From Vicinamibacteria bacterium (GTDB taxonomy: Bacteria > Acidobacteriota > Vicinamibacteria > Vicinamibacterales > JAENWD01), in contig CAVOPA010000003.1 of the NCBI GenBank assembly GCA_963697705.1, positions 832,176-896,175 of the forward strand: a DNA stretch of 64,000 nucleotides, given 5' to 3'. A program made the position numbers and the translations under genes. Below are positions 4,278 to 60,819 of this stretch, piece after piece (the first letter of the stretch is position 1; the number at the start of each line of letters is the position of its first letter). The notes beneath the pieces are model-generated. The model saw only the letters and a list, made by a program, of their open reading frames with translations. It was not told the origin of the DNA and made no database searches.

Positions 4278-4547
4278 GAATGCGAAATGCACAATGCAAA
4301 ATGACACCAGCCAGATGCGGGCAGGCGTCGGCGCTCGCGTCAGCGGCGCGGCTTCCGGCGTTCAGCCGCTTGGCGTGAACCGCTGCGCTTAACGCCACGC
4401 CAGACGCAGCCCCTCAGCCAACCGAGCACGGTCCGTTCCCTCCGGCCGGCGCGCGAGTCCAGAGCCGTCGCCCGCCGCCAAGGCCTACCGCCAGCCGCCA
4501 GCCGCCAGCCGCCAGCCGCCAGCCGCCTGTGCATTGTGCATTACACG
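4278..4547. repeat. Word palindrome, ATGCACA-type arms around a ~220-nt core
   Basis: Left gaatgcgaaatgcacaatgcaaaatgaca (4278-4306). Right tgtgcattgtgcattacacg (4528-4547). tgcacaatgca and tgcattgtgca are exact reverse complements. The core ends in (CCGCCAG) x5.7 at 4488-4527. Confidence 0.7.
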
Positions 4548-7253: not shown

Positions 7254-7400
7254 CCGGAATGCACGATGCACAATGCACAATGACAGACGCGGGCACCGTC
7301 CTCGACATGAACACCGCGTGTGGCCGTGTCGAGCATGGTCGTTAGCTTCAGTCGCATCCAGTCTGCCGGCCGTTGTGCATTGTGCCTTGTGCATTACTCG
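7254..7400. repeat. Word palindrome, ATGCACA-type, between convergent genes
   Basis: Left ccggaatgcacgatgcacaatgcacaatgacag (7254-7286). Right ccggccgttgtgcattgtgccttgtgcattactcg (7366-7400). Loop contains a nested hairpin ctcgaca (7301-7307) / tgtcgag (7327-7333). Confidence 0.8.
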
Positions 7401-9767: not shown

Positions 9768-9900
9768 AAAGGCCAAAGGCTAAGGGCCAAAGGCTTAGGG
9801 CCAACCGCTGAAGGCCCAAGCGCGAGTCGGCTCGTGACCGCGAGCTCGCCAAGGGGCCTTTAGCCATTGGCCCTTAGCCATCAGTCCTTAGCCCTGAACC
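9768..9900. repeat. Word palindrome, GGCTAAGGGCCAA-type, filling the thiolase-hbd spacer
   Basis: Left aaaggccaaaggctaagggccaaaggcttagggcc. Right ggcctttagccattggcccttagccatcagtccttagccc. The right arm contains the thiolase stop codon and the left arm abuts the hbd GTG. Confidence 0.8.
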
Positions 9901-12860: not shown

Positions 12861-13012
12861 ATGCGCCATCCGCCATCCGCATCCGCCATCCTGCATCCGC
12901 CATCCTGGCATCCGGCATCCGTCGCATTCGGCATCCGGCATTCGACATCCGGCATTCGACATTCATCGACATCCGACATCCGACATCCGGCATCCGGCAT
13001 CAGGCATCCGAG
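12861..13012. repeat. High-coordinate arm (CATCCG/CATTCG words, ~150 nt) of the same palindrome
   Basis: ...gcattcggcatccggcattcgacatccggcattcgacattcatcgacatccgacatccgacatccggcatccggcatcaggcatccgag. Ends 3 nt from the thiolase stop at 13015. Confidence 0.8.
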
Positions 13013-19720: not shown

Positions 19721-19836
19721 TACATCACGTGCTCTAGACTCCACCGCAACGCACTGAGCTGGTGCGGGCGGCCGTCCTCGGGATACCGGCGTTGCCGACG
19801 ACCGATGCCGCACCCATGCAAGGGGAGAAAGAACTG

Positions 19837-22770
19837 ATGAAATCTCGAATTCTAGCCTTCGTCGCGGCCCTGATGGTCGCGAACGCTGGCTACGGATGGG
19901 CCCAGGAAACCACAGGGTCCATCGCCGGCCGTGTGTCCGACCCGCAAGGGCTGGCGGTGCCCGGCGCCACGGTGACAGTCACCGGCGCGCGGGGAGCGCA
20001 GACCTTCACCGCGGACGCGGAGGGACGTTTCAACGCTCCGTTCCTTACGCCTGGCACCTACACGGTTCGGGCAGAGCTGCAGGGCTTCAAGGCGACCGAG
20101 CAGAAGGACGTGGTCGTGCGCCTCGGGCAGCGCGTCGATCTGCCGATCACCATGGCAGTGGGTGGCCTCACCGAAACGGTTGAAGTCACCGGAGGATCGC
20201 CGACGATAGACACCTCGACGACGACCGTCGGAGCGGTGATCAACTCTGACCTGTTGCAGCGCGTGCCGATCGGCCGGCGCTTCAGCGACGCACTCTACAT
20301 CGCGCCTGGCGTGACTGACAGCGGCGCGGGCGCAGCCAACCCGTCCGTCGCCGGAGGCAGCGGCCTCGAGAACCAGTACGTCGTCGACGGCGTGAACATC
20401 ACGAACACCGGCTACGGTGCGCTTGGCTCGTACTCCATCTACCACGGGTCGCTCGGCAATGGCGTCACCTACGACTTCGTGAACGAGATCCAGGTCAAGA
20501 CCGCGGGCTACGAGGCCGAGTACGGGCAGTCCACGGGCGGTGTCGTGAACGTGCTCACCAAGAGCGGCAGCAACAGCCTGCGCGGCAGCGTGTTCGGCTA
20601 CGCGCGGCCCTCGGCGCTCGAAGGCGAGTTCAAGCAGATCCAGACGGAGAACGGCTCCATCAACACGTCCGGCACGCAGACGAGCGACGCCGGGTTCACG
20701 GTCGGCGGCCCGGTGCTGCGCGACAGGATCTTCTTCTTCGGCGCGTACAACCCATCGTGGGAGACGCGCACGATCACCGCGCCGGCCGGCTTCCCGCTCG
20801 AGAGCCTCGGTGAGGTCGATCGCAAGCGGCACATCAACTCGTACTCCGCCAAGGGGAGCGCGCAGCTCGGGAACGGTCACCGCGTCGACGCGTCGTTTTT
20901 CGGTGACCCGGCAAAGGGCGACATGGGACCACAGCGGCTGTCGTCGCTCGTCCGCACCGATACATCGGCGTTCAGCTCACTCGAGTACGGCGGTCACAAC
21001 CAGACGCTGAAGTACGACGGTGTCATCCGTCCGAGCTGGCTCGTCGAAGCGACGTGTCTCGCGCGCGAAGAACAACCTGCAGGAGTTTCCGTCGGTCAAC
21101 TCGTTCCAGATTCAGGACACCACCGTGGTGCCCAACATCGTGAGCGGCGGCATCGGGTTCTACGAGGCGGGCAACGAGGGCATCAACCTGCAGTACCAGG
21201 CCAAGTCCACACACATCTTCGGCGGACACCAGATCCGGTACGGGGTGCTCTACGAGGACATCGAGTACAACAACATCAACCAGTACACGGGCCCGACCTT
21301 CACGCTGTCGGACGGGCAGCAGACGGCGACCGGAGCGAGCGTCCGCGTGCTGAGCGACCCCAATGTCGGGAAGATCTACCGCGCGATTCGGGCAAACCTG
21401 AACACGGACCGCTCGACGACGCAGCAGTACACCAGCTTCTTCGCGCAGGACACGTGGCGGGTGGGCAACCGGCTCACGATTCGACCGGGCATCCGCTACG
21501 AGCAGCAGAAGCTGGTCGGAACGCTTGACGGACTTCAAGTGGAGCGGCAACTGGGCGCCACGCATCGGCGCCACCTATGACGTGCTCGGGAACGGCCGCT
21601 CGAAGCTGTATGCGAACTGGGGCCGCTTCTTCGCCAAGGTGCCGAACGATCTCGCGGCCCGTGCGCTGTCGGCCGACGCGGGCGTGACGCGCGCGGACTA
21701 CTACGACGCCGCGCTGACGCAGCCGATTCCCGAGGGTGTGCCCGCCGGGCCCAACCTCGAGACGCGACACCTGAACTTCGCCGGGCTCTCGCCGTCGGAT
21801 TTCGATCCGGACGCCAAGTCCACCTACCTGGACGAGACGCTGGTCGGGTTCGAGTTCGAGCCGTTCACGAACCTGAACGTCGGCGCGCGGTGGGTCCACC
21901 GCCGGTTCGGGCGGATTCTCGAGGACGTGGGCACCGTGCCGATGGTCGGGTTCTTCCTCCCGGACAGCGGGGCGGACAGCGTCGAGTACTTCATCACCAA
22001 CCCAGGACCGAAGACGCCTGTCGTTCCGATTCCCGGCTTCGACATCAGCTTCGAAAACGCGATCCACGACTACGACGCCGTAGAACTGACAGCAGACAAG
22101 CGGTTCGGCAACAACTGGGGCCTGCAGGCGTCCTACCGCTGGTCGCGGCTGTATGGCACGTTCGAGGGCTTCTTCAGGAACGACAACGGCCAGTCGGACC
22201 CGGCGATCACCTCGCTGTTCGACTTCCCGACCAACGACCCGAGCTACGCCGCGATCGGCGTGCCGGAGTTCGGCTTCCGCGGCGATATCCGGTATCTGGG
22301 GTCGGCCGGCGCCGGTCCGCTCCCGACCGATCGGCCGCACCAGGTCAAGGTGTACGGCAACTACTCGATGAACTGGGGCCTCAACCTGGGCGCGGGCGTG
22401 ACAGCTCGGTTCCGGGATACCGCTCACGGCCCTCGCCGCGAACCCGTACTACGAGAACGAGGGCGAGATTCCGGAAGGGCCTCGCGGCTCGGGCGTCCAG
22501 ACGGCGGACGGGTTCAAGACGCGGACGCCGTTCACCTACGACGTCAACCTGCACACCGACTATGCGGTCAAGATGGGCGGGACGCGGAGGGTCGTGCTCC
22601 TGGCCGACATGTTCAACCTGTTCAACGTGAGGCGCGCGACGGGCTACGATCAGGACACGGAGTCCTCGTTCGGTGCGCTGAACCCCGATTACGGGCAGCC
22701 GGTGATCGCCCGGGTGCCGCAGTTCCAGACGCCGTTCCAGCTGCGGTTGGGCGCGCGGTTCGAGTTCTAG
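19837..22770 (+). pseudogene. CarboxypepD_reg / TonB-dependent receptor-like outer-membrane protein, about 3 frameshifts
   Basis: RBS GGGGAG then MKSRILAFVAALMVANAGYGWAQETTGSIAGRVSDPQGLAVPGATVTV...; ends ...FQLRLGARFEF-stop. Frame switches are needed near 21052, 21522 and 22400. Confidence 0.8.
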
Positions 22771-22908: not shown

Positions 22909-22980
22909 ACCTCCCGCCTCCAGCCTCCAGCCTCCAGCCCTCCAAGCCCCTCAGCCCTCAGCCTTGGTTGGCCTTAGCCG
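22909..22980. repeat. One-armed simple-word tract (CCTCCAG / CCCTCAG words)
   Basis: cctcccgcctccagcctccagcctccagccctccaagcccctcagccctcagccttggttggccttagccg. No complementary arm seen nearby. Confidence 0.7.
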
Positions 22981-26398: not shown

Positions 26399-26410
26399 CA
26401 CGTACCGGAA

Positions 26411-26515
26411 GGGCTAAAGGCTAAGGGCCAAGGGCTTAGGGACGGCCGGGGTTAAGGCCCAGAACTCGACTAGCCCTCAGCGGTGCCCTTAGCCCTCAGC
26501 CTTTAGCCCTCAGCC
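26411..26515. repeat. Word palindrome, GGCTAAGGGCC-type, between convergent genes
   Basis: Left gggctaaaggctaagggccaagggcttaggg (26411-26441). Right cccttagccctcagcctttagccctcagcc (26486-26515), ending 1 nt from the M14 stop codon. Confidence 0.8.
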
Positions 26516-26516
26516 T

Positions 26517-29336
26517 TCAGTAGAGCGCGTTGAAGAGCAGCTTGAAGGTAGCGTGGGGCTGGGCGCGGAACTGGGGCGGGAAGGCGAAGAGGACGACACG
26601 GCCGGCGCCATATGGTGCGTCGAGCAGCGCGTGGCGGGTGGCGATGCGATCGGCGCCGAGCAGCCAGCCGCTCATGAGCACGACGTCGGCGGGCGCGTAC
26701 TGCGCAATGCTCTGCACCGTCGGATCGGCAGTGTCGAAGGCGCGCGAGGCCTCGAAATAGGCGGCGCTCTCACGCGCCATCCCCCAGGCCACCGGCTGGT
26801 TGATGTCGACGGTGATCCGCACCACAGACCCCGGGCAGTAGAACACCGAGCGATCCAACCCGCGCGTCACGTCGCGAATGCGATCGAACACGCCGCCGAA
26901 GCGTTCGAGCGGGAGGTCGCTGGCCGCATCGAGGGTCACGAGTGTGCCGCCATCGTGCACGAAGCGCTTCAGCGCCTCCACCCCGGACTCGCCGATCCCG
27001 CCCTGGTACTCCGGTGGCACGGGGTTGGAGGGCCCATCGTGCCGGGATGACGCGGAGGGCTCGTGGCCGCGAACGATCGCCGCCGGTGACTGGCGCGGCA
27101 GGATGATGACGTCGAACGACCTGCGGAGATCGCCGGCGCGGACATCGCGGTCGACCAGCGTCGCGTATGGGAATCCGTACTGCTCCAGCAGCCACCGCGT
27201 CCAGCCTTCGTCGATATTGGCGACCCAGCTCTTATACAGGCCGATGCGGCGTGCGGCGATGGGCTGCGTGGGGTCCGCAGGCGCGCGATCGATTGACCAC
27301 GCGCGGAGACCGAGATCCTCCACCAGGCGGCGGACCAGCGCTGCGAGCCCCGGTCCGCGGTTTCGCGCCCCGGCGGGCTGCGATCGGCTGAATGCCATGT
27401 CGCTATCGCCGGACGCCCGGCTCGACTCGGGCGCGACAAGAGCCTTTCCTCCGCGGCCGGCCACCTTGATGACCCACGCTCCCGCTGGCAAGGTGACGCC
27501 CGGGCGGGGACTGAAGGGAGCGCGGAGGCGGCTGACGGCTGCGCCGTGCGCCAGCAGCCGGTTGACGGCGAGTGCGCTCACGTTCGCACGGTCATCAATC
27601 ACATACCCCCACGGGCCGGAGCCGGGTGCGATGGTGATGGCGCCCGCCGCGCGCGGTGCCGTCTCGAGGCGCACGAGGGCCGTCGTGTCGAATGGCGTGG
27701 CGACAGGAACGGCGGTGACGCCCATCTGATACGCGAGCGTCCAGCCGGCCGTGTCGTAGGGCGGGATTGGCGGTCCACCCGGGTGCGCGCGCAGATCCGG
27801 GTACACCTGGCGCTCGAGCAGGTCCTTGGCAAAAGGCCGGAACGGCTGCGCGAGCAGCACGGCGTGCGTACCGGCGGGATACGTGACCCCGTCCGCGGCG
27901 AGCGGCGCCGTCGCACGATGCACCTCGATTCCGCCCTTCATCAGCGTGTCGATGAACGCCATGCTCGCCGGCACGTCGTGCTGCGGGGCAGGAATGATGT
28001 AGGCCACAGGCGCTTCGGTCCGGCCCTTGGCGATCTGCCGCGCGCCGACCTGGTAGATGCCGTAGAGGAGCTGCTCGCGCCACTTCGCCGCAAGGTCGAG
28101 GACGCCCAACGAGCCCGTGAGCATGTAATCGACGGCGTCGGCGAGGTGCAGCGTGCCGCCCTTCCAGGGATTCGGATACGTCACGCTCGGCACGAGCGTG
28201 GACACGCCGTTCGAGAGCGTCCGCGGGAAATCGGCGGGGTCGTACGTGTACGGCGTGGCCGAGGCGTGGCCGGTCTCCGTCAGGATGCCGATGATGTTGT
28301 GGAAATAGCTCGTCGTGCGGACCGAACCGTTGTACCAGATCGAGAACGAGTATCGCGAGATGACGCCGTCCTTTCCCTCGCGCTCGAACCGGTCCTGCAT
28401 CGCGCCGCCGACCAGATCCACGCCGCGCACGATCTGCGGATCGATGTTGGGGTTCACCGGGTCGGGAAACGGCGGCACGAAGATGCGCGGCGGGTACGTG
28501 CCCTGATGCTGGTTGTACATGATTTGCGGCAGCCACTCCGCGAACAGCAGGTGACTGACGACCTGCGTTTCCTTCTGCGTCTGCATGTAGCCGTCGCGGT
28601 TGTTGTCGTGCCCGACATACTTCTGATAGAGCCACGGCATCGGACTGTCCTGGTGCGGCGTGTGGAGCGTGCGCCGGTACCAGTCGACCACCATGTTCAT
28701 GCCGTCCGGGTTGATGCACGGCGCGAGAACGAGGATCACGTTGTCGCGGATCGCCTGCATCTCGGCGCTGTCGTCGGTGGCCACACGGTAGGCGAGCCGG
28801 ATCGCGTGCTGCGCGGTCGCGACCTCGCTCGCGTGGAGGCCGCTGTCGATCCAGACGACTGCCTTGCCCTCCCGCGCGAGCGCGCGCGCCTCGCGGTCGC
28901 TCAAGCCGCCGACGAGCGCGAGCCGCCGCGAGATGTCACGGTAGTGCCCAAGCCGGGCGAGGTTCGCTTCCGACGAGATGATCGCGACGAGCATCTCGTT
29001 GCCTTCAGTGGATTGTCCCGCGATCTCGAGCTGCACCCGGTCGGAGGCCGCATCGAGCCGCTGGAAATACGCGCGCAGCTGCCGGAAGTCCGCGAGCGTG
29101 TAGTCGTCGCCGGGCTCGAACCCGAGGACGTCGCGCGGCGAAGGCACCCCGGTGGGCGCCTGCGGCGCGGCGCGCAGCTGTCCGGCAGGCTGCGGGAGCA
29201 GCAGGAGCGCGCACACTCCGAGGAGCTGCAGGAGATGTCCTGCGCACGTCCGGGTCGGCACGGGAGCTAGAGTGCCCGACGCTGCGAGGCTGCGCAACCC
29301 GACGCTGTCCCGTCGGCCAATGGCAGCTTTATCCAT
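26517..29336 (-). CDS. M14-family zinc carboxypeptidase-like protein, long form with C-terminal GATase1-like module
   Basis: GLHASEVATAQHAIRLAY, CINPDGMNMVVDWY, KYVGHDNNRDGYM. C-terminal IGLYKSWVANIDEGWTRWLLEQYGFPY...FDVIILP. Confidence 0.85.
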   Translation of the reverse strand: MDKAAIGRRDSVGLRSLAASGTLAPVPTRTCAGHLLQLLGVCALLLLPQPAGQLRAAPQAPTGVPSPRDVLGFEPGDDYTLADFRQLRAYFQRLDAASDRVQLEIAGQSTEGNEMLVAIISSEANLARLGHYRDISRRLALVGGLSDREARALAREGKAVVWIDSGLHASEVATAQHAIRLAYRVATDDSAEMQAIRDNVILVLAPCINPDGMNMVVDWYRRTLHTPHQDSPMPWLYQKYVGHDNNRDGYMQTQKETQVVSHLLFAEWLPQIMYNQHQGTYPPRIFVPPFPDPVNPNIDPQIVRGVDLVGGAMQDRFEREGKDGVISRYSFSIWYNGSVRTTSYFHNIIGILTETGHASATPYTYDPADFPRTLSNGVSTLVPSVTYPNPWKGGTLHLADAVDYMLTGSLGVLDLAAKWREQLLYGIYQVGARQIAKGRTEAPVAYIIPAPQHDVPASMAFIDTLMKGGIEVHRATAPLAADGVTYPAGTHAVLLAQPFRPFAKDLLERQVYPDLRAHPGGPPIPPYDTAGWTLAYQMGVTAVPVATPFDTTALVRLETAPRAAGAITIAPGSGPWGYVIDDRANVSALAVNRLLAHGAAVSRLRAPFSPRPGVTLPAGAWVIKVAGRGGKALVAPESSRASGDSDMAFSRSQPAGARNRGPGLAALVRRLVEDLGLRAWSIDRAPADPTQPIAARRIGLYKSWVANIDEGWTRWLLEQYGFPYATLVDRDVRAGDLRRSFDVIILPRQSPAAIVRGHEPSASSRHDGPSNPVPPEYQGGIGESGVEALKRFVHDGGTLVTLDAASDLPLERFGGVFDRIRDVTRGLDRSVFYCPGSVVRITVDINQPVAWGMARESAAYFEASRAFDTADPTVQSIAQYAPADVVLMSGWLLGADRIATRHALLDAPYGAGRVVLFAFPPQFRAQPHATFKLLFNALY

Positions 29337-39996: not shown

Positions 39997-40075
39997 TGCA
40001 AAATGCACGATGCACGATGCGACGATGCGACGATGCGACGATGGACAGACTGACATGTCGGATGCGGGATGCCGG
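39995..40075 (+). repeat. Direct octamer/heptamer word tract between convergent genes
   Basis: aatgcaaaatgcacgatgcacgatgcgacgatgcgacgatgcgacgatggacagactgacatgtcggatgcgggatgccgg. Confidence 0.75.
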
Positions 40076-46061: not shown

Positions 46062-47001
46062 ATGGCTACTGCGAATCTGCGCGTCGTCCTCATCCTGGCG
46101 CTGACGGCCGGCTTCGCGACGGCGAGCGCCAGCCGTGCAGCAACGCAGCCTGCGGCTACCACCTTGTCGGTGACCCGCGCAGGCCCCAGAGGCGAAGTCG
46201 GCAGCCTCGCCGAGGCGAACGAGGTGCGGGTCGTGTTCTCGGAGCCGATGGTCTCGCTCGGCCGCATACCGCGCGTCGAGACCGCGCCGTTCGTCCGGAT
46301 CTCTCCGGCAGTGGCTGGTACATTTCGCTGGTCCGGAACAACGACGCTGATCTTCACGCCGGACCCGAAGCGGCCGCTCCCGTTCGCCACGCGGTTCGAC
46401 GTCACGATCACGTCCGCCGCGACGGCGGTGAGCGGGCGGCGGCTCGCCACGCCGTACACGTTCACGTTCATCACGCCTGCGGCGCGTCTGCTGCGCACGA
46501 CGTGGTCACGGCGGGGCGGCCTCTCCAGCGCGCCGGTCGTCGTGCTGCTCCGCTTCAATCAGCGTGTGCAGCCTGCGGATGTCTTCTCGCACCTGGCCGC
46601 GAGCTTCGAGCCGCACGACTGGGCGGAGCCCTCGCTGTCGGACGATTCGGTCGCGCGCACGACGGCTGCCGATCCCACTCGACGAGCGTCTGCGCGTACG
46701 GCCGGCGATCGCGATGGGCGAGACGCGCGCCAGACGTGACCCGTCCGCCATCGTCATCGCCAACCCGCCTTCCGGTGCGACCTACTCTATCGATCCGACC
46801 CTGCGGCGCGAGTTCCAGACGCTCGCGCTCCGAGCGGTGACGGCTGAGCACACGCGCGTGGAGCGGCACATCGACGGCCGCACAGTGGGCAGTTCGACTT
46901 CGGAGAGCGCCGTGATGTGGCCGCTCCGCGCAGGTCGGCACCGTATCTCGGCCAACGACCCGCGCGGCCGAACCGCCGAAGCTACGATCGTCGTGCGGTG
47001 A
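46062..47001 (+). pseudogene. Deletion remnant: alpha-2-macroglobulin-like N-terminus joined to a PBP1C C-terminal domain
   Basis: Frame A (46062-46739) has a signal plus an MG1-like fold: EVRVVFSEPMV...ISPAVAGTFRWSGTTTLIFTPDPKRPLPFATRFDVTI. Frame B (to 47001) has a BiPBP_C-like tail: IANPPSGATYSIDPTL...HIDGRTVG...WPLRAGRHRISANDPRGRTAEATIVV. Confidence 0.6.
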
Positions 47002-47006
47002 CTTCC

Positions 47007-48326
47007 TCAGAGCAGCATTGACGCGATCGCGGCGTTGATCAGGGTGGCAAGAAAGCCCACGAGCAACGCCCGAGAGGCGAGCCGGGCCAGGTCGCCTCGG
47101 CGCGTGGGGGCCATTCCGCCGATGCCGCCGAGCTGGATGCCAATCGAAGCGAAGTTCGCGAAGCCGGTGAGCGCATATGTGGCGAGCGTGTACGACCGCG
47201 GGCTCAGCGTGTGGCGGTACTGCGTCGTCAGCTTCACGAACGAGACGAACTCCGTGGCCACGAGCTTCGTGCCGAGAAGATCGGCGACGGCCGGCACATC
47301 AGCACGCGGCACGCCCATGAGCACGGCGGCAGGTGAGAAGACCACCGCGAAAACGCTCGCGAGCGTCAGGCCCGGGCGAATTGCACCGAGCACGAAGTCA
47401 AACAGCGCCAGGAACGCCAGGAAGGCGATGAGCATGGCGGCGACGTTCAGCGCCAGGGTCAGTCCGTCCGCGGCGCCAGCGGCCGCAGCGTCGATGACGT
47501 TGACGTGCTGGCGCTCGACGGCCGTTTTTACGCGCCCCTGAGTCTCGGGGCGTTCGAGCTCGGGCAGCATTATCTTCGAGAGGTACAACCCACACGGTGC
47601 CGCCATGACGCTCGTCGTCAGAATGGCAATCGGGTCTGCGCCGAGCCCGATGTAGACGGCCATGACCCCGCCGGAGATAGTGGCCATCCCGCCAACCATC
47701 ATCGCGAGCAGCTCCGACTGCGTCATCCGGGGCACGTACGGTTTCACGATGATTGGCGCCTCGGTTTGGCCCATGAAGACGTTCGCCGCCGCCGACAATG
47801 TTTCTGCGCCGCTCGTTCGCATCAGGTACATCATGGCGCGCGCCATCATGGCGACGATGAACTGGAGGACACCAAAGTAGTACAAGACCGTGAAGAACGA
47901 CGATATGAAGATGATCGTCGGCAGCGCCGTAAACGCGAAGACGAACCCGCGCGGCAGCACCTTGCCGAGGACCTGCTGGTTCGCGAGATCACCAAACACG
48001 AACTGCGAGCCCAGGTTCGTGAACTCGAGAAAACGCGCGACACCTCGCGCCACCGCGCTGAACAGCTCATAGCCCGGGCGGACGCCGTTCACCTCGAGCT
48101 TCAGGATGAAGAACGCCAGCAGCAGCTGCAGCGCGATGCCCCAGCCAACCGTGCGCCAGCTCACGGCGCGCAGGTTGGAGGAGGCGGCGGCCACGATGGC
48201 GATGAAGCACAGCGCGCCGATGCCGCCCTGCAGGCGGGGATCGATCACCCCCTGCGAGAGCCAGGCGAGTGCGGCGAGTACAACGGCGACGCCGCCGGCG
48301 GCGATGCGTAACGAGAGATTCGACAT
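47007..48326 (-). CDS. Concentrative nucleoside transporter (NupC/CNT family)
   Basis: GFVFAFTALPTIIFISSFFTVLYYFGVLQ, GAETLSAAANVFMGQTEAP, TGFANFASIGIQLGGIG. Confidence 0.88.
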   Translation of the reverse strand: MSNLSLRIAAGGVAVVLAALAWLSQGVIDPRLQGGIGALCFIAIVAAASSNLRAVSWRTVGWGIALQLLLAFFILKLEVNGVRPGYELFSAVARGVARFLEFTNLGSQFVFGDLANQQVLGKVLPRGFVFAFTALPTIIFISSFFTVLYYFGVLQFIVAMMARAMMYLMRTSGAETLSAAANVFMGQTEAPIIVKPYVPRMTQSELLAMMVGGMATISGGVMAVYIGLGADPIAILTTSVMAAPCGLYLSKIMLPELERPETQGRVKTAVERQHVNVIDAAAAGAADGLTLALNVAAMLIAFLAFLALFDFVLGAIRPGLTLASVFAVVFSPAAVLMGVPRADVPAVADLLGTKLVATEFVSFVKLTTQYRHTLSPRSYTLATYALTGFANFASIGIQLGGIGGMAPTRRGDLARLASRALLVGFLATLINAAIASMLL

Positions 48327-48397
48327 GTGCGCTGAATCCTGGTCAGAGTCTCGTGGCGGCGACGTTTCGGCTGCGCTCGATGCGCTCGCGGGATCGC

Positions 48398-48632
48398 GGC
48401 CCGCCTGAAGGCGGGCACTACGTGACGATCACGGCCCACCTTGAGGCGGGCACTACGGACATCACGGCCCGCCTGAAGGCGGGCACTACGCGACGATCAC
48501 GGCCCGCCTGAAGGCGGGCACTACGCGACGATCACGGCCCGCCTGAAGGCGGGCACTACGCGACGATCACGGCCCGCCTGAGGCGGGCACTACGACGATC
48601 CGGCCCGCCTGGCGGGCACTACCTGACGATCC
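48398..48632 (+). repeat. Tandem array of 7 REP-like hairpin units (31-35 nt) between deoA and nupC
   Basis: Units start at 48398, 48433, 48466, 48501, 48536, 48571 and 48602. Consensus GGCCCGCCTGAAGGCGGGCACTACGCGACGATCAC. Three central units are identical. The last unit overlaps the deoA stop at 48619. Confidence 0.9.
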
Positions 48633-49920
48633 CGTGAATGAGGGGAACCGGCGGGGGCGGCTCGGCGCTTATCGTCACGGCGCGGGCGAGCAGCTCCCGT
48701 GCCTCGTCGGACCGCGCGCCGGCCCCGGGGTGCAGGCGGACGATCGGGTCCCCTGCCTCGACCCGGTCCCCCGGCTTGGCCAGCAGCACGAGCCCCGCGC
48801 CCGGATCGATCCGCGTGTCGAGGCGCTCGCGGCCGGCGCCGAGCACCATCGACGCGCGGCCGATGAGCGCGGCGTCCATCCCGGCCACGAAGCCGGAACG
48901 CGCAGCCGTGAACGGATCCGCGGCGGCCACGTGCGGCAGGCGGGCACGGTCCTCGATGATGCGGCGATCGCCGCCCTGGTTTTCCACCACCTGCCCGAAC
49001 TTCTCGAGCGCCGCACCCGAGGCGAGCGCCCGCCGCACGCGCTCGCCGGCGTCACGATCGTCGCCGGCTCCGGCGAGTCGCAGCATGCGCGCGGCAAGCG
49101 CCACGCACAGGTGCTCCAGATCCGAGGGGCCGCGCCCGGCCAGCGTGTCCAGGCACTCGCCGATCTCGAGCGCGTTGCCGATCGCGCGACCGAGCGGCGC
49201 ATCCATCGCGGTGAGCATGGCCTCGGTCTCGAGCCCCACCCGCGCGCCGATTGTCACCATCGCTTCAGCCAGCCGGCGGGCGTCGGCCTCCGTTTTCATG
49301 AAAGCGCCGCGGCCGACTTTCACGTCGAGCACCAGCACGTCGGTGCCCTCGGCGATCTTCTTACTCATGATCGATGACGCGATGAGCGGAATGCTCTCGA
49401 TCGTGCCGGTGACATCGCGCAACGCGTACAGTTTCTTGTCGGCGGGGGCGATATCCGCCGTCTGGCCGATGAAGGCACACCCGATCCGCTGCAGCGCCGC
49501 GAGGAACGCGTCGCGCTCCATCGCGACGCGGAACCCCGGAATGGACTCCAGCTTGTCGATGGTGCCGCCGGTGTGCCCGAGCCCTCGTCCTGAGCTCTTG
49601 GGCACCACCACTCCGCAGGCGGCCACGATCGGCGCGACCACGATCGACGTCTTATCGCCGACGCCGCCGGTGCTGTGCTTGCCTGCTTTCGTGCCCGGGA
49701 TTGCGGACAGGTCGACGCGGCGCCCCGATGCAACCATCGCCTCTGTGAGCCAGCCCGTCTCGTCCGCGCTCATGCCGCGAAGCAGCATGGCCATCAGCAG
49801 CGCCGACGTCTGGTACTCCGGGATGGTGTTCGCCGCGACGCCCGAGACGAAGAACTCGAGTTCCTCGCGCGTGAGAGCGGCGCCGTCCCGCTTCCGGACG
49901 ATGATGTCGACAATGCGCAT
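48619..49920 (-). CDS. deoA: Thymidine / pyrimidine-nucleoside phosphorylase
   Basis: MRIVDIIVRKRDG, KHSTGGVGDKTS, GRGLGHTGGTIDKLESIPG. The track ORF upstream extension to 50226 overlaps the divergent M14 gene. Confidence 0.92.
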   Translation of the reverse strand: MRIVDIIVRKRDGAALTREELEFFVSGVAANTIPEYQTSALLMAMLLRGMSADETGWLTEAMVASGRRVDLSAIPGTKAGKHSTGGVGDKTSIVVAPIVAACGVVVPKSSGRGLGHTGGTIDKLESIPGFRVAMERDAFLAALQRIGCAFIGQTADIAPADKKLYALRDVTGTIESIPLIASSIMSKKIAEGTDVLVLDVKVGRGAFMKTEADARRLAEAMVTIGARVGLETEAMLTAMDAPLGRAIGNALEIGECLDTLAGRGPSDLEHLCVALAARMLRLAGAGDDRDAGERVRRALASGAALEKFGQVVENQGGDRRIIEDRARLPHVAAADPFTAARSGFVAGMDAALIGRASMVLGAGRERLDTRIDPGAGLVLLAKPGDRVEAGDPIVRLHPGAGARSDEARELLARAVTISAEPPPPVPLIHGIVR

Positions 49921-49928
49921 GAGGCCGG

Positions 49929-49958
49929 GGAAAAGTATAGGGCAGACTATACTTTTCC
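49929..49958. promoter_or_regulatory. Perfect 12-bp AT-rich inverted repeat in the 43-bp deoA / M14 divergent spacer
   Basis: GGAAAAGTATAG-ggcaga-CTATACTTTTCC. Each arm contains TATACT read towards the adjacent gene. It lies 9 nt from the deoA start and 6 nt from the M14 start. Confidence 0.7.
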
Positions 49959-49963
49959 GTTCG

Positions 49964-52654
49964 ATGCCTGCCGCCTCCCCGCGATCGCACCTGACGCATA
50001 CCGGCCGCCGCCGGTTCCTGCCCGTCGTCCTGCTCGGCGTGCTCGCGACGCTCGCGTCTGGCGCGGCTGTGCGCGGCGAGTCCGCGGTCCCGTCCCCTGA
50101 GCAGTTCTTTGGCTTCCGCATGGGCGCCGACCGCCGCATCGCCGGCTGGTCGCGCATCGTCGAGTATTTCCGCACGGTCGACCGCCTCTCCGACCGCGTG
50201 ACCGTGCAGGATCTCGGGCCGACCACCGACGGCCGTCCCTACCTGCTGGCCGTCATCTCGGCGCCGGACACGATTGCCGACCTGCCGCGCTACCAGGCGA
50301 TGCAGAAGCGCCTCGCCGATCCGCGCATCACCTCGCCGGCGGAGGCCGATCGGATCGCGCGGGACGGCAAGGTGGTCGTGCTCATTGGCGCCAACGTCCA
50401 CGCCAACGAGATCGGCAGCAGCCAGACGGCCAACGACCTGCTGTATTGGCTCGCGACGTCCGACGATTCCCGCGTCAAGCGCGTGCTCGACAACGTGATC
50501 CTGCTGCTCGTGCCCTCGCAGAATCCCGACGGTCAGCAGATGATGACCGACTGGTACGCGCAGACGGTCGGCACACCCTACGAGGACGCGCCGCTTCCGG
50601 AGCTGTACCAGCGCTACGCGGGTCACGACAACAACCGCGACAGCTACATGCTCACGCAGGTCGAAACGCGCTACCTCGCCCAGATCACCTACCGCGACTG
50701 GCTGCCCGAGGTGTACCTCGATCAGCATCAAATGGGCAGCGGACGCGCGCGCATCTTCGTGCCGCCGTTCAAGAACCCGCCCAACCCCAACGTGGATCCG
50801 CTCGTGTGGAGCGAGGTGAACCTGCTCGGACAGGCAATGGCCGCCCGCCTGCAGGAGGCGGGCAAGCCAGGCGTGATGTGGGGTGAGATCTACAGCGGCT
50901 TCTGGCAAGGTGCGAACAGCACCAACCCGTGGTGGCACAACATGGTGGCGCTGCTCGCCGAAGTTGCGGGCGCACGCGGCGCGTCGCCCATTTTCCAGCA
51001 CACGCCACCGGGCGCGTCCCTCTCAGGCGCCGAGACGAAGATCGAGTCGGGCGACATGCCGATCCCTCCGCCACCGGACCTTCAGTTCCGGATGAACTAC
51101 CCGGAGCCCTGGCTTGGCGGTCGCTGGACCTTCGCGGACGTTGTCGAGCACCATCGGCTCGCGGCAGAAGGCCTGCTCGAAGCCGCGGCGGATCGGCGCG
51201 AGAGCCTGAAGCGCAACTTCTACCTGATGAACCGGCGGACCGTCGAGCGGTTCTCCAGCGGTCAGCCGTTCGCGTTCATCGTGCCTCGGGCACAGCATGA
51301 CCCGGGGAGCGCCGTGCGCCTGCTCGGTCTCATTCAAGACGGCGGCGCCGACGTCGACGAGGCCAGCGCGCCGTTCACGGCGGGGGGCGTGCAATATCCG
51401 GCAGGGACGGCCGTGATCCGCCTCGCGCAGCCGTTCGGGCGATGGGTGAAGGATCTGCTCGAAGCGCAGTCGTACCCGGACATCCGGTGGCCCTCGCCTT
51501 CCGCGCCCATCGATCGGCCGTACGACATGACCGCGTGGACGCTCGGCCTGTTGATGGGCGTCACCGTCGTCGAAGTGCCGGCGCCGTTCGACGCGGCGCT
51601 CACGCGGCTCGGCCGTGACCTGGCGTGGCCACGGGGAGTTGTGACCGGCAGCGGCACCACATGGGTGCTGTCGCACAGCCCGAACGCGTCGAGCACGGCC
51701 ACATACCGGCTGCTCGCCGCAGGCGCCGACGTCTCGTGGGCGACCGAACCAGTCCGCGTGGGCGAACGGCAATTCGAGAGCGGCGCCGTCATCGTTGGCA
51801 ACGTGGCGCCGGGGCTGATGGCCACACTCGCAGCAGACCTCGGCCTCGAGATCGCGGCCACGTCGCAGCCGCTGCGGTCAGAGCGTCTCGCGCTTCGGCT
51901 GCCGCGCGTGGCGTTGTACGAACCATGGGGCGGTCTCGCCGATGCGGGTTGGACGCGGTGGATCTTCGAGCAACACGACGTTCCGTACACGCGCGTGCGG
52001 CATGACGACGTGCAGGATCCGTCGTTCGGCCGCCGGTTCGACGTGCTCGTCCTGGCCGATGCGCCAGGGACGCTCCTGCTGCGGGGCCTGCCGGGCGCGA
52101 ACGTCATGCCGCGCCACAAGGGCGGTCTCGGTGACACCGGCGTCGCAGCCCTTCGCCGCTTCGTGCAAGGGGGCGGGACGATTATCACGCTCGGCAACAG
52201 CGCGTTGTTCGCCATCGAGCACCTCGGCGTTCCCGTGGCCAACGTCATCCCCACCGACGATCCCGACGCGTTCTTCTGCCCCGGCTCTCTACTCCGCCTG
52301 GACGTCGATACCGAGCACCCAATCGGCTACGGCATGCCGCCCGGTGCGGCGGCGATGTTCGTGAACAACGGCGGCTATGCGATCACAGACGGTCCGAACA
52401 CCGCCGTGACCACAGTGGCACGCTACCCTCAGGGTCCGCTGCTCCTGAGCGGCTGGATGCTGGGCGAACAGCGCCTCCGCGGAGCCGGCGCCGTGCTCGA
52501 CGTGCCGATGGGCCGCGGACGCATCATCATGCTGACCTTCAGGGTGCAGCACCGGGCGCAGACGTCAGGCACGTTCAAGTTGCTCTTCAACGCAATTCTC
52601 TATGGGCCGGCCGCCGCGGCGCGGCAGGTCGGCGCTCCAACGCAGCAATTCTGA
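49964..52654 (+). CDS. M14-family zinc carboxypeptidase-like protein (paralog of 26517-29336)
   Basis: ATG at 49964, Arg-rich then hydrophobic signal RRRFLPVVLLGVLATLASGAA. NVHANEIGSSQ, SQNPDGQQMMTDWY, RYAGHDNNRDSYM. C-terminal VALYEPWGGLADAGWTRWIFEQHDVPY...FDVLVLAD. Confidence 0.85.
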   Translation: MPAASPRSHLTHTGRRRFLPVVLLGVLATLASGAAVRGESAVPSPEQFFGFRMGADRRIAGWSRIVEYFRTVDRLSDRVTVQDLGPTTDGRPYLLAVISAPDTIADLPRYQAMQKRLADPRITSPAEADRIARDGKVVVLIGANVHANEIGSSQTANDLLYWLATSDDSRVKRVLDNVILLLVPSQNPDGQQMMTDWYAQTVGTPYEDAPLPELYQRYAGHDNNRDSYMLTQVETRYLAQITYRDWLPEVYLDQHQMGSGRARIFVPPFKNPPNPNVDPLVWSEVNLLGQAMAARLQEAGKPGVMWGEIYSGFWQGANSTNPWWHNMVALLAEVAGARGASPIFQHTPPGASLSGAETKIESGDMPIPPPPDLQFRMNYPEPWLGGRWTFADVVEHHRLAAEGLLEAAADRRESLKRNFYLMNRRTVERFSSGQPFAFIVPRAQHDPGSAVRLLGLIQDGGADVDEASAPFTAGGVQYPAGTAVIRLAQPFGRWVKDLLEAQSYPDIRWPSPSAPIDRPYDMTAWTLGLLMGVTVVEVPAPFDAALTRLGRDLAWPRGVVTGSGTTWVLSHSPNASSTATYRLLAAGADVSWATEPVRVGERQFESGAVIVGNVAPGLMATLAADLGLEIAATSQPLRSERLALRLPRVALYEPWGGLADAGWTRWIFEQHDVPYTRVRHDDVQDPSFGRRFDVLVLADAPGTLLLRGLPGANVMPRHKGGLGDTGVAALRRFVQGGGTIITLGNSALFAIEHLGVPVANVIPTDDPDAFFCPGSLLRLDVDTEHPIGYGMPPGAAAMFVNNGGYAITDGPNTAVTTVARYPQGPLLLSGWMLGEQRLRGAGAVLDVPMGRGRIIMLTFRVQHRAQTSGTFKLLFNAILYGPAAAARQVGAPTQQF

Positions 52655-57045: not shown

Positions 57046-57128
57046 CATTCGCAATTCGGAATTCGGAATGCGGCGCTCGGAATTAGAGCCGACTTCGGAG
57101 CGCGGAGTGCGGAAAGCGAGGCACGGAG
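57046..57128 (+). repeat. CGGA-word tract beside csbD
   Basis: cattcgcaattcggaattcggaatgcggcgctcggaattagagccgacttcggagcgcggagtgcggaaagcgagg. Confidence 0.7.
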
Positions 57129-60730: not shown

Positions 60731-60819
60731 AAATGTCGGATGCAGGATGGCGGATGCCGGATGCCAGAAAGTCCTTGGCGTCACATTCGACATCCAGCAT
60801 CCGACATCCCGCATCCTCT
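60731..60819. repeat. Word palindrome, GGATGNCG-type, between convergent genes
   Basis: Left aaatgtcggatgcaggatggcggatgccggatgccag. Loop aaagtccttggcgtcac. Right attcgacatccagcatccgacatcccgcatcctct, abutting the rng stop at 60818. Confidence 0.8.

Follow-up and report, generated by a model that had tools for sequence, protein, structure and literature searches.

Two back-to-back -10 elements probably account for a perfect inverted repeat between divergent deoA and peptidase genes in a Vicinamibacteria genome

We analysed a 64,000-nt stretch of DNA from a Vicinamibacteria bacterium (assembly GCA_963697705.1, contig CAVOPA010000003.1, positions 832,176 to 896,175 of the forward strand; the whole stretch is hereafter called the window), in which a perfect inverted repeat lies between the divergent start codons of a deoA-like nucleoside phosphorylase gene and a gene for an M14-family metallopeptidase. 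Compared with around 170 related loci, the sequence of this dyad indicates that it is probably a pair of outward-facing, back-to-back -10 elements that lack -35 boxes and drive near-leaderless mRNAs of both genes. It is most likely an ordinary kind of compact bacterial promoter rather than a special regulatory site, and the palindrome reveals no new kind of regulatory element.

The repeat occupies positions 49929-49958 and reads GGAAAAGTATAG-GGCAGA-CTATACTTTTCC. Direct reading and a repeat finder agree that its arms are complementary at 12 of 12 positions around a 6-nt centre, as an earlier note on this DNA had described, and the repeat finder could not extend the match in either direction. 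On the plus strand, the 43-nt gap between the start codons (49921-49963) runs ...CAT GAGGCCGG GGAAAAGTATAG GGCAGA CTATACTTTTCC GTTCG ATG... Read outward, each arm contains the hexamer TATACT (49948-49953 on the plus strand, 49939-49934 on the minus strand), also as the earlier note had it. These are the only two exact copies of TATACT in the whole window, one per strand, facing outward and 8 bp apart. Both fit the sigma-70-type pattern TANNNT, with A at position 2 and T at position 6, and TATACT is a working -10 hexamer for both sigma-70 (PMC3946193) and sigma-S (PMC5650638) of Escherichia coli. A second hexamer, TACTTT, overlaps each TATACT 2 nt further downstream, which leaves a 2-nt uncertainty over the hexamer actually used.

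The earlier note had also seen no Shine-Dalgarno sequence for either gene, and direct reading bears this out; there is no GGAG, GAGG or AGGA in the 13 nt before the deoA ATG or the 10 nt before the peptidase ATG. A promoter scan of positions 48000-51000, of a kind that is uninformative for -35-less promoters, returned neither a -35/-10 pair (TTGACA with a 16-18-bp spacer) nor an extended -10 element (TGn). The -35 box is not obligatory in clades with -35-less promoters, and transcription usually starts around 6-9 nt downstream of the -10 hexamer.

Taken by itself, the repeat is only weakly non-random: when the window was simulated with a first-order Markov model, 12% of the simulations contained a perfect inverted repeat of 12 bp or longer whose loop did not exceed 12 nt. 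Nor is the site the most AT-rich local sequence, as had been thought earlier; 19 of its 30 positions are A or T, which places it among the richest 30-mers of the window, but 18 clusters have 18/30 or more, up to 20/30 at 19816-19862. On the sequence comparison, the significance of the repeat rests on its position and its conservation (87% identity of intergenic columns against around 50% at 4-fold synonymous sites, in the lineages described below).

For deoA, we gathered 80 loci from species-representative genomes, around 53 of them from Acidobacteria, and with the window and the loci L002 and L007 added, 56 were compared. The GTDB representatives do not include the window's species; the best match to its DeoA among them stands at 71%. 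Of the 56 loci, 49 have an exact TATACT no more than 70 nt upstream of the deoA start, and in 46 of them it lies 7-14 nt upstream, with a mode of 9 nt. The flanks of the hexamer are poorly conserved, the upstream neighbour gene differs among loci, and the aligned upstream regions conserve neither a -35 box nor a TG extension; the base directly before the hexamer (-13) is variable as well (A in 19, C in 10, G in 12 and T in 8). Most of the loci without TATACT are labelled as something other than Vicinamibacterales (Terriglobia, Blastocatellia, Gemmataceae). Two exceptions are of Vicinamibacterales type, namely L120, which has TAAGAT 11 nt from the ATG, and L104, which carries a heptamer-repeat insertion; in the latter, the heptamer array stands in place of the deoA TATACT promoter. 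In many other Vicinamibacterales, deoA diverges from a HEAT-repeat gene, and the two share an 8-bp palindrome, AGTATACT, which is TATACT on both strands; the start codons of deoA and the HEAT-repeat gene then lie 9-10 nt away on either side. A resemblance between the flagellar sigma-28 -10 element (GCCGATAA) and the CCGATAT of many deoA loci was rejected, for lack of a TAAA -35 box and of a conserved context.

The peptidase gene tells the same story in other neighbourhoods. Among 80 peptidase loci collected from metagenomes, 29 hold orthologues at a cut-off of at least 53% identity, and TATACT lies upstream of 26 of these. Most do not adjoin deoA, and they include marine relatives with a GC content of 44-51%. 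The distance from hexamer to start codon ranges from 7 to around 190 nt, and the longer leaders carry Shine-Dalgarno sequences (for example GAGGA in L007). As the hexamer is fixed while the leader length varies, TATACT behaves like a promoter element and not like a translation signal. The proposal of the earlier note that each arm holds an outward-reading -10 hexamer is thus well supported by these 26 loci and by the 46 deoA loci.

Other conserved sequences were seen around the peptidase genes. In L010-L017, L024 and L027, a 21-nt block, CACTAGACGATATACTGACTG, surrounds the peptidase TATACT around 15 nt upstream of the start and is kept over a GC range of 50%-63%; this conservation exceeds the need of a bare -10 element. 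Upstream of distant peptidase homologues (L028-L081) there is a gene for a 258-aa protein (MSxRTDxIVEWLRQRL...), with an CCTGATATAGT box 7-9 nt from its ATG in around 20 loci. These boxes are another conserved family of short-leader promoters, with TATAGT rather than TATACT.

What has been kept between deoA and the peptidase gene, whose divergent pairing is limited to a sub-clade, is best seen in the eight lineages of a genus-level group that share this arrangement with an 8-bp hexamer spacing (the window, L163/L002, L174, L173, L169, L175, L170 and L162). Their DeoA proteins are around 80% identical and their 4-fold synonymous sites are saturated at around 50% identity, while the gap, 41-44 nt long, has a column identity of 87%; a neighbouring intergenic region cannot be aligned. 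In deoA orientation, the invariant block reads AAAAGTATAG-TCTGCC-CTATACT, and the core AGTATAG-N6-CTATACT with its 6-8-bp centre is invariant in seven of the eight sister lineages. The outer arm (AAAA/TTTT; the outer five positions) does not vary on the peptidase side but does so on the deoA side. Only the window's lineage therefore has the perfect 12-bp symmetry; the other lineages have a repeat of 7-8 bp. The deoA-side TATACT is likewise kept in seven of the eight; L162 has TGTACT, which breaks the palindrome, and a shifted hexamer, TACTCT (TANNNT), 9 nt from the deoA ATG. Further away, L167 and L168 (DeoA 77% identical) keep the pair of deoA and M14 peptidase with the two TATACT hexamers 37 bp apart, L007 has the two hexamers fused as AGTATATACT, and most other loci have a single TATACT. 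By this comparison of sequences, conservation extends to the hexamers and to their distance from each gene, but not to the dyad.

A hexamer close to the start codon is a general layout in this clade. In a survey of 368 genes with fairly unambiguous starts from the related loci, TANNNT hexamers most often end 6-10 nt before the start codon, where each position collects 7-17 counts; 11 nt adds 5, and other distances mostly have 0-3. Shine-Dalgarno-like motifs form a separate peak in the same genes at around 7 nt, raised up to 11 nt. An mtnA-like gene, present in the window and around 20 other loci, has a TANNNT 6-9 nt from its ATG, in eight different versions of the hexamer. The clade-wide layout fits the prediction that 13.3% of genes in Acidobacteria are leaderless (Zheng et al. 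2011, PMC3160421); our literature search found no transcription start site or differential RNA sequencing (dRNA-seq) data for Acidobacteria. For the window's two mRNAs, the earlier claim that they are leaderless or nearly so is probably right in its second form; with the usual distance from -10 hexamer to start, the geometry predicts leaders of around 4-7 nt and not strictly leaderless mRNAs. Two other genes in the window are candidate leaderless genes with canonical geometry. One is the window's mtnA-like gene (around 44588, minus strand), with TATGAT 6 nt before the ATG, and the other a thiolase-like gene (around 14226, minus strand; named from its N-terminal sequence only, VMTETFIVAG...), with TAAGAT 6 nt before a GTG.

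If the dyad is such a promoter pair, RNA polymerase, bound in one or the other orientation, would melt the AT-rich hexamer and start transcription around 6-9 nt downstream. The resulting mRNAs would begin around 4-7 nt before the ATG, with no Shine-Dalgarno sequence, and would presumably be translated in a leaderless manner by direct recognition of the 5'-proximal AUG. Because each promoter lies inside the footprint of the other, their occupancy by polymerase would be mutually exclusive. Competition between them would matter only at high activity, as has been found for bidirectional promoters in E. coli (PMC12825309). The palindrome would then be a by-product of two similar promoter cores that face away from each other. 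Both genes would have had a TATACT promoter before they became neighbours, with the 12-bp symmetry arising later and in the window's lineage only. An alternative use of the T-tract in reiterative transcription sensitive to uridine triphosphate (UTP) was rejected, because most relatives lack the T-run, which in the window precedes the predicted start, at -6 to -4.

Several points weigh against such a promoter pair. All transcription starts and leader lengths given here are inferred from sequence. The hexamers end 13 and 10 nt before the ATG, compared with 6-7 nt in canonical leaderless genes, which indicates short leaders rather than none. Counted from the first T of the hexamer to the A of the ATG, the distance is 19 nt for deoA, 16 nt for the peptidase and 15 nt in most relatives, where the signal of Zheng et al. 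lies at around 10-12 nt; the predicted leaders are around 4-7 nt for the window's two genes, against 0-3 nt in the modal relatives. Efficient translation may be possible from a 4-7-nt leader that has no Shine-Dalgarno sequence, which for this organism is an assumption. With neither a -35 box nor an extended -10, the recruitment of polymerase is unexplained. TATACT is also not the general -10 of the clade; it has no other copy in the window, and other short-leader genes have varied TANNNT hexamers. Two features are left unexplained. The strict invariance of TATACT, including the C at -8, goes beyond what a simple -10 element needs, and an extra bound factor could be behind the invariance of the 8-bp spacer in seven of eight lineages whose synonymous sites are saturated.

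One way to account for the spacer is an operator. The earlier note had raised the possibility that the dyad, alone or besides the promoters, binds a dimeric transcription factor that sits over both -10 boxes and co-represses both genes. Such an arrangement would be an economical shut-off of two genes from one site, the repeat is perfect over 12/12 positions in the window, and the core and its centre are invariant in seven of the eight sisters despite saturated synonymous sites. However, the spacing of the half-sites is conserved only within the genus-level sub-clade, and gives way to 37 bp in L167/L168, a fusion in L007 and a single hexamer elsewhere. The conservation of the arms is not dyad-symmetric either, and the 12-bp symmetry exists in the window only. 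Further copies of the dyad, which the earlier note had in mind, did not appear; a search allowing up to 3 mismatches and gaps of 0-12 nt turned up none beyond the orthologous sites, either in the window or across 1.29 Mb of related loci, apart from a chance AT-rich hairpin in a Lachnospiraceae metagenome-assembled genome (L149). No regulator gene stands beside the pair in any locus inspected, and the nearest regulatory genes, an extracytoplasmic function (ECF) sigma/anti-sigma pair, are around 6 kb away. With variable spacing, asymmetric arms, no copies and no adjacent regulator, we disfavour this idea and consider an operator unlikely, with somewhat more room for it inside the genus-level sub-clade, where the 8-bp inter-hexamer spacer is invariant.

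The invariance of TATACT itself might instead mean that the hexamer (often CGATATACTG or CTATACTT) is a box for a dedicated sigma factor, or for polymerase together with a starvation signal, that marks nutrient-scavenging genes throughout the clade. We rate this slightly below the operator. It would explain why two unrelated gene families have an invariant hexamer upstream across the clade, and why this hexamer is rare elsewhere and is not the usual -10 of other short-leader genes. A third family also comes into view. In the marine relatives L012 and L015, a gene for an SDF-family (PF00375) amino-acid/dicarboxylate symporter adjoins the peptidase gene (minus strand, reverse-complement coordinates 8346 and 5714, respectively), with TATACT 7-11 nt upstream of its ATG. 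Both arms in the window are CTATACTT, which matches the -10 element of E. coli sigma-S type (TATACT, CTATACT, KCTAYRCTTAA; PMC5650638), but E. coli sigma-70 uses TATACT too (PMC3946193). The match is also incomplete, as the base at -13 is not conserved across the deoA loci (see the counts above) and the position of the K at -14 is A or C in the window. To our knowledge, RpoS is known only from Proteobacteria and none is known in acidobacteria, and no candidate sigma factor was identified here. A regulon is not demonstrable from our sample, which is biased because deoA and the peptidase served to collect it. A fuller version, in which the deoA-nupC-cdd cluster, the secreted M14 peptidase and the SDF transporter form a Vicinamibacterales-wide TATACT regulon of leaderless mRNAs, joined in the window's genus by a factor that binds the spacer, seems to us equally doubtful.

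It is very improbable that the repeat acts through structure, whether as an RNA hairpin in a long leader (blocking translation or ending transcription) or as a DNA cruciform. The stem is predicted to be stable (-22.9 kcal/mol as RNA, z = -3.2; -9.9 kcal/mol as DNA, z = -5.7), but the genes diverge, and therefore no sense transcript would cover the repeat unless it started inside the opposite gene. A terminator scan called no terminator-like site at the repeat, and a search of Rfam over 46500-50500 at E<=1 gave no match on it and one chance match to a small RNA inside deoA. Relatives lose the stem yet keep the hexamers, and no compensatory changes in the stem were found across them. A chance palindrome with no function, for which the Markov frequency given above could speak, is hardly credible and is contradicted by the conservation data, with 87% identity across lineages whose neutral sites are saturated and hexamers conserved across around 75 loci.

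The promoter pair remains the reading that we prefer, and its predicted elements are listed with the two genes in Table 1.

Table 1. Features at the divergent deoA-peptidase junction, in window coordinates.
Feature	Position	Strand	Remarks
deoA-like pyrimidine-nucleoside (thymidine) phosphorylase gene	48619-49920	minus	433 aa; PF02885, PF00591, PF07831
Predicted deoA transcription start zone	49925-49927	minus	7-9 nt after the hexamer, G at 49926 and 49925; predicted leader ~5-7 nt
Left arm GGAAAAGTATAG	49929-49940		Holds the predicted deoA -10 hexamer on the minus strand; GGAAA part is the putative discriminator (TTTCC on the minus strand)
Predicted deoA -10 hexamer TATACT	49934-49939	minus	13 nt upstream of ATG; conserved in relatives
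Inter-hexamer 8 bp GGGCAGAC	49940-49947		-13 to -20 of both predicted promoters; invariant in 7/8 sister lineages
Repeat centre GGCAGA	49941-49946		
Right arm CTATACTTTTCC	49947-49958		Holds the predicted peptidase -10 hexamer, then the putative discriminator TTTCC
Predicted peptidase -10 hexamer TATACT	49948-49953	plus	10 nt upstream of ATG; conserved in relatives
Predicted peptidase transcription start zone	49959-49960	plus	G49959 or T49960; predicted leader ~4-5 nt
M14-family metallopeptidase gene	49964-52654	plus	896 aa; PF00246; signal-peptide-like N-terminus

The window has a GC content of around 67%, and homologues of its DeoA and peptidase are labelled Vicinamibacterales or Acidobacteriota. 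The DeoA-like protein starts with MRIVDIIVRKRDG, which is typical of the family, from the ATG at 49920 on the minus strand. Its gene heads a cluster for nucleoside catabolism, with genes for a NupC-type nucleoside transporter, a PNP_UDP_1 phosphorylase and a cytidine deaminase, and the mtnA-like (IF-2B family) gene also lies downstream of deoA; an amidohydrolase gene lies directly 3' of the peptidase gene. Stop-free open reading frames (48619-50226 on the minus strand and 48638-52654 on the plus strand) span the 43-nt gap into the opposite gene. Because such high-GC frames cross the gap with no stop codon, gene callers over-extend both genes, as in the relatives L162 (a peptidase of 920 aa, overlapping deoA) and P0132 (a DeoA of 467 aa). 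An exact-protein look-up of the window's peptidase matched no record. The locus L001 (ENA ERZ25039579 contig_86816) matches the window almost exactly and has the same DeoA and the same dyad; its peptidase, nupC and tsaD are each split into two gene calls, which suggests frameshift errors in that assembly.

The window also holds tandem repeats. A 35-bp repeat of around 7 copies (48392-48631; unit GATCACGGCCCGCCTGAAGGCGGGCACTACGCGAC, with a GCCCGCC/GGCGGGC hairpin in every copy) fills the gap of around 290 nt between the deoA stop and the start of the nupC-like gene. Because the deoA and nupC-like genes overlap in the relative L163, the array is an insertion specific to its lineage, between genes that elsewhere form an operon. 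Many short heptamer or octamer arrays occur in other intergenic regions of the window (4488-4527, 7258-7282, 9768-9893, 12867-13010, 22910-22964, 26409-26520, 40003-40043, 57047-57084 and 60733-60816), with the units CCGCCAG, AATGCAC, AAAGGCC, CATCCGG (20 copies), CCTCCAG, AAGGGCT, ATGCGACG, ATTCGGA and ATGCCGG. Comparable heptamer arrays stand upstream of genes in the related loci L005 and L009.

Vicinamibacterales are abundant and mostly uncultured soil Acidobacteria, whose promoters and translation start signals have been without experimental knowledge. This locus and its around 75 orthologous sites provide a clean and unusually well conserved example, in this phylum, of predicted -35-less promoters for leaderless or near-leaderless mRNAs. 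They suggest that a palindrome can arise simply from packing two such promoters back to back. They also serve as a warning for annotation, as gene callers run both genes through the stop-free 43-nt gap.

Palindromic operators are well known from regulators of nucleoside catabolism, namely DeoR and CytR in E. coli and DeoR in Bacillus subtilis. The dyad resembles these in lying upstream of a deoA/pdp-type gene, but there is no resemblance in sequence, no gene for such a regulator nearby, and no conservation of the dyad spacing across relatives. The extended -10 element of E. coli sigma-S (CTATACT/KCTAYRCTTAA; PMC5650638) comes closer. Both arms are CTATACTT (C at -13, T at -6), a -35 box is lacking, and the genes are of the scavenging and catabolic kind. 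However, the K at -14 is absent, the C at -13 is not conserved in the orthologous promoters, and the host is an acidobacterium; we regard the resemblance as a lead only.

Leaderless and short-leader genes in Actinobacteria and Deinococcus-Thermus, and by prediction in Acidobacteria, have a -10 box (TANNNT) around 10-12 nt upstream of the start (Zheng et al. 2011, PMC3160421). The window shares with them a TANNNT close to the ATG, the lack of a Shine-Dalgarno sequence and a -35 box, and a GC-rich genome, and this geometry recurs in the clade. It differs in that its hexamers end 10-13 nt before the ATG (mostly 9 in relatives) rather than 6-7 nt, so that leaders of around 2-7 nt are expected, and in that the middle three positions, usually free, are here those of an invariant TATACT.

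The other close parallel is the bidirectional promoter described by Warman, Grainger and colleagues, in which near-symmetric, overlapping -10 elements give divergent starts 7-25 bp apart, with preferred distances of 18, 10 and 23 bp (PMC10268837, PMC12825309). As in those promoters, the window has two outward -10 elements in a pseudo-symmetric sequence between divergent and possibly functionally linked genes, which could be used in one orientation at a time. Unlike them, its hexamers do not overlap. As they stand 8 bp apart and their predicted starts lie around 33 bp apart, outside the 7-25 bp range, the window would hold a back-to-back promoter pair and not one shared symmetric -10 element. 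Some relatives do fit the definition by prediction, with starts 21 bp apart at AGTATACT and 23 bp apart at the AGTATATACT of L007. It appears that the arrangement in the window either descends from true symmetric bidirectional promoters of the same order or evolved side by side with them.

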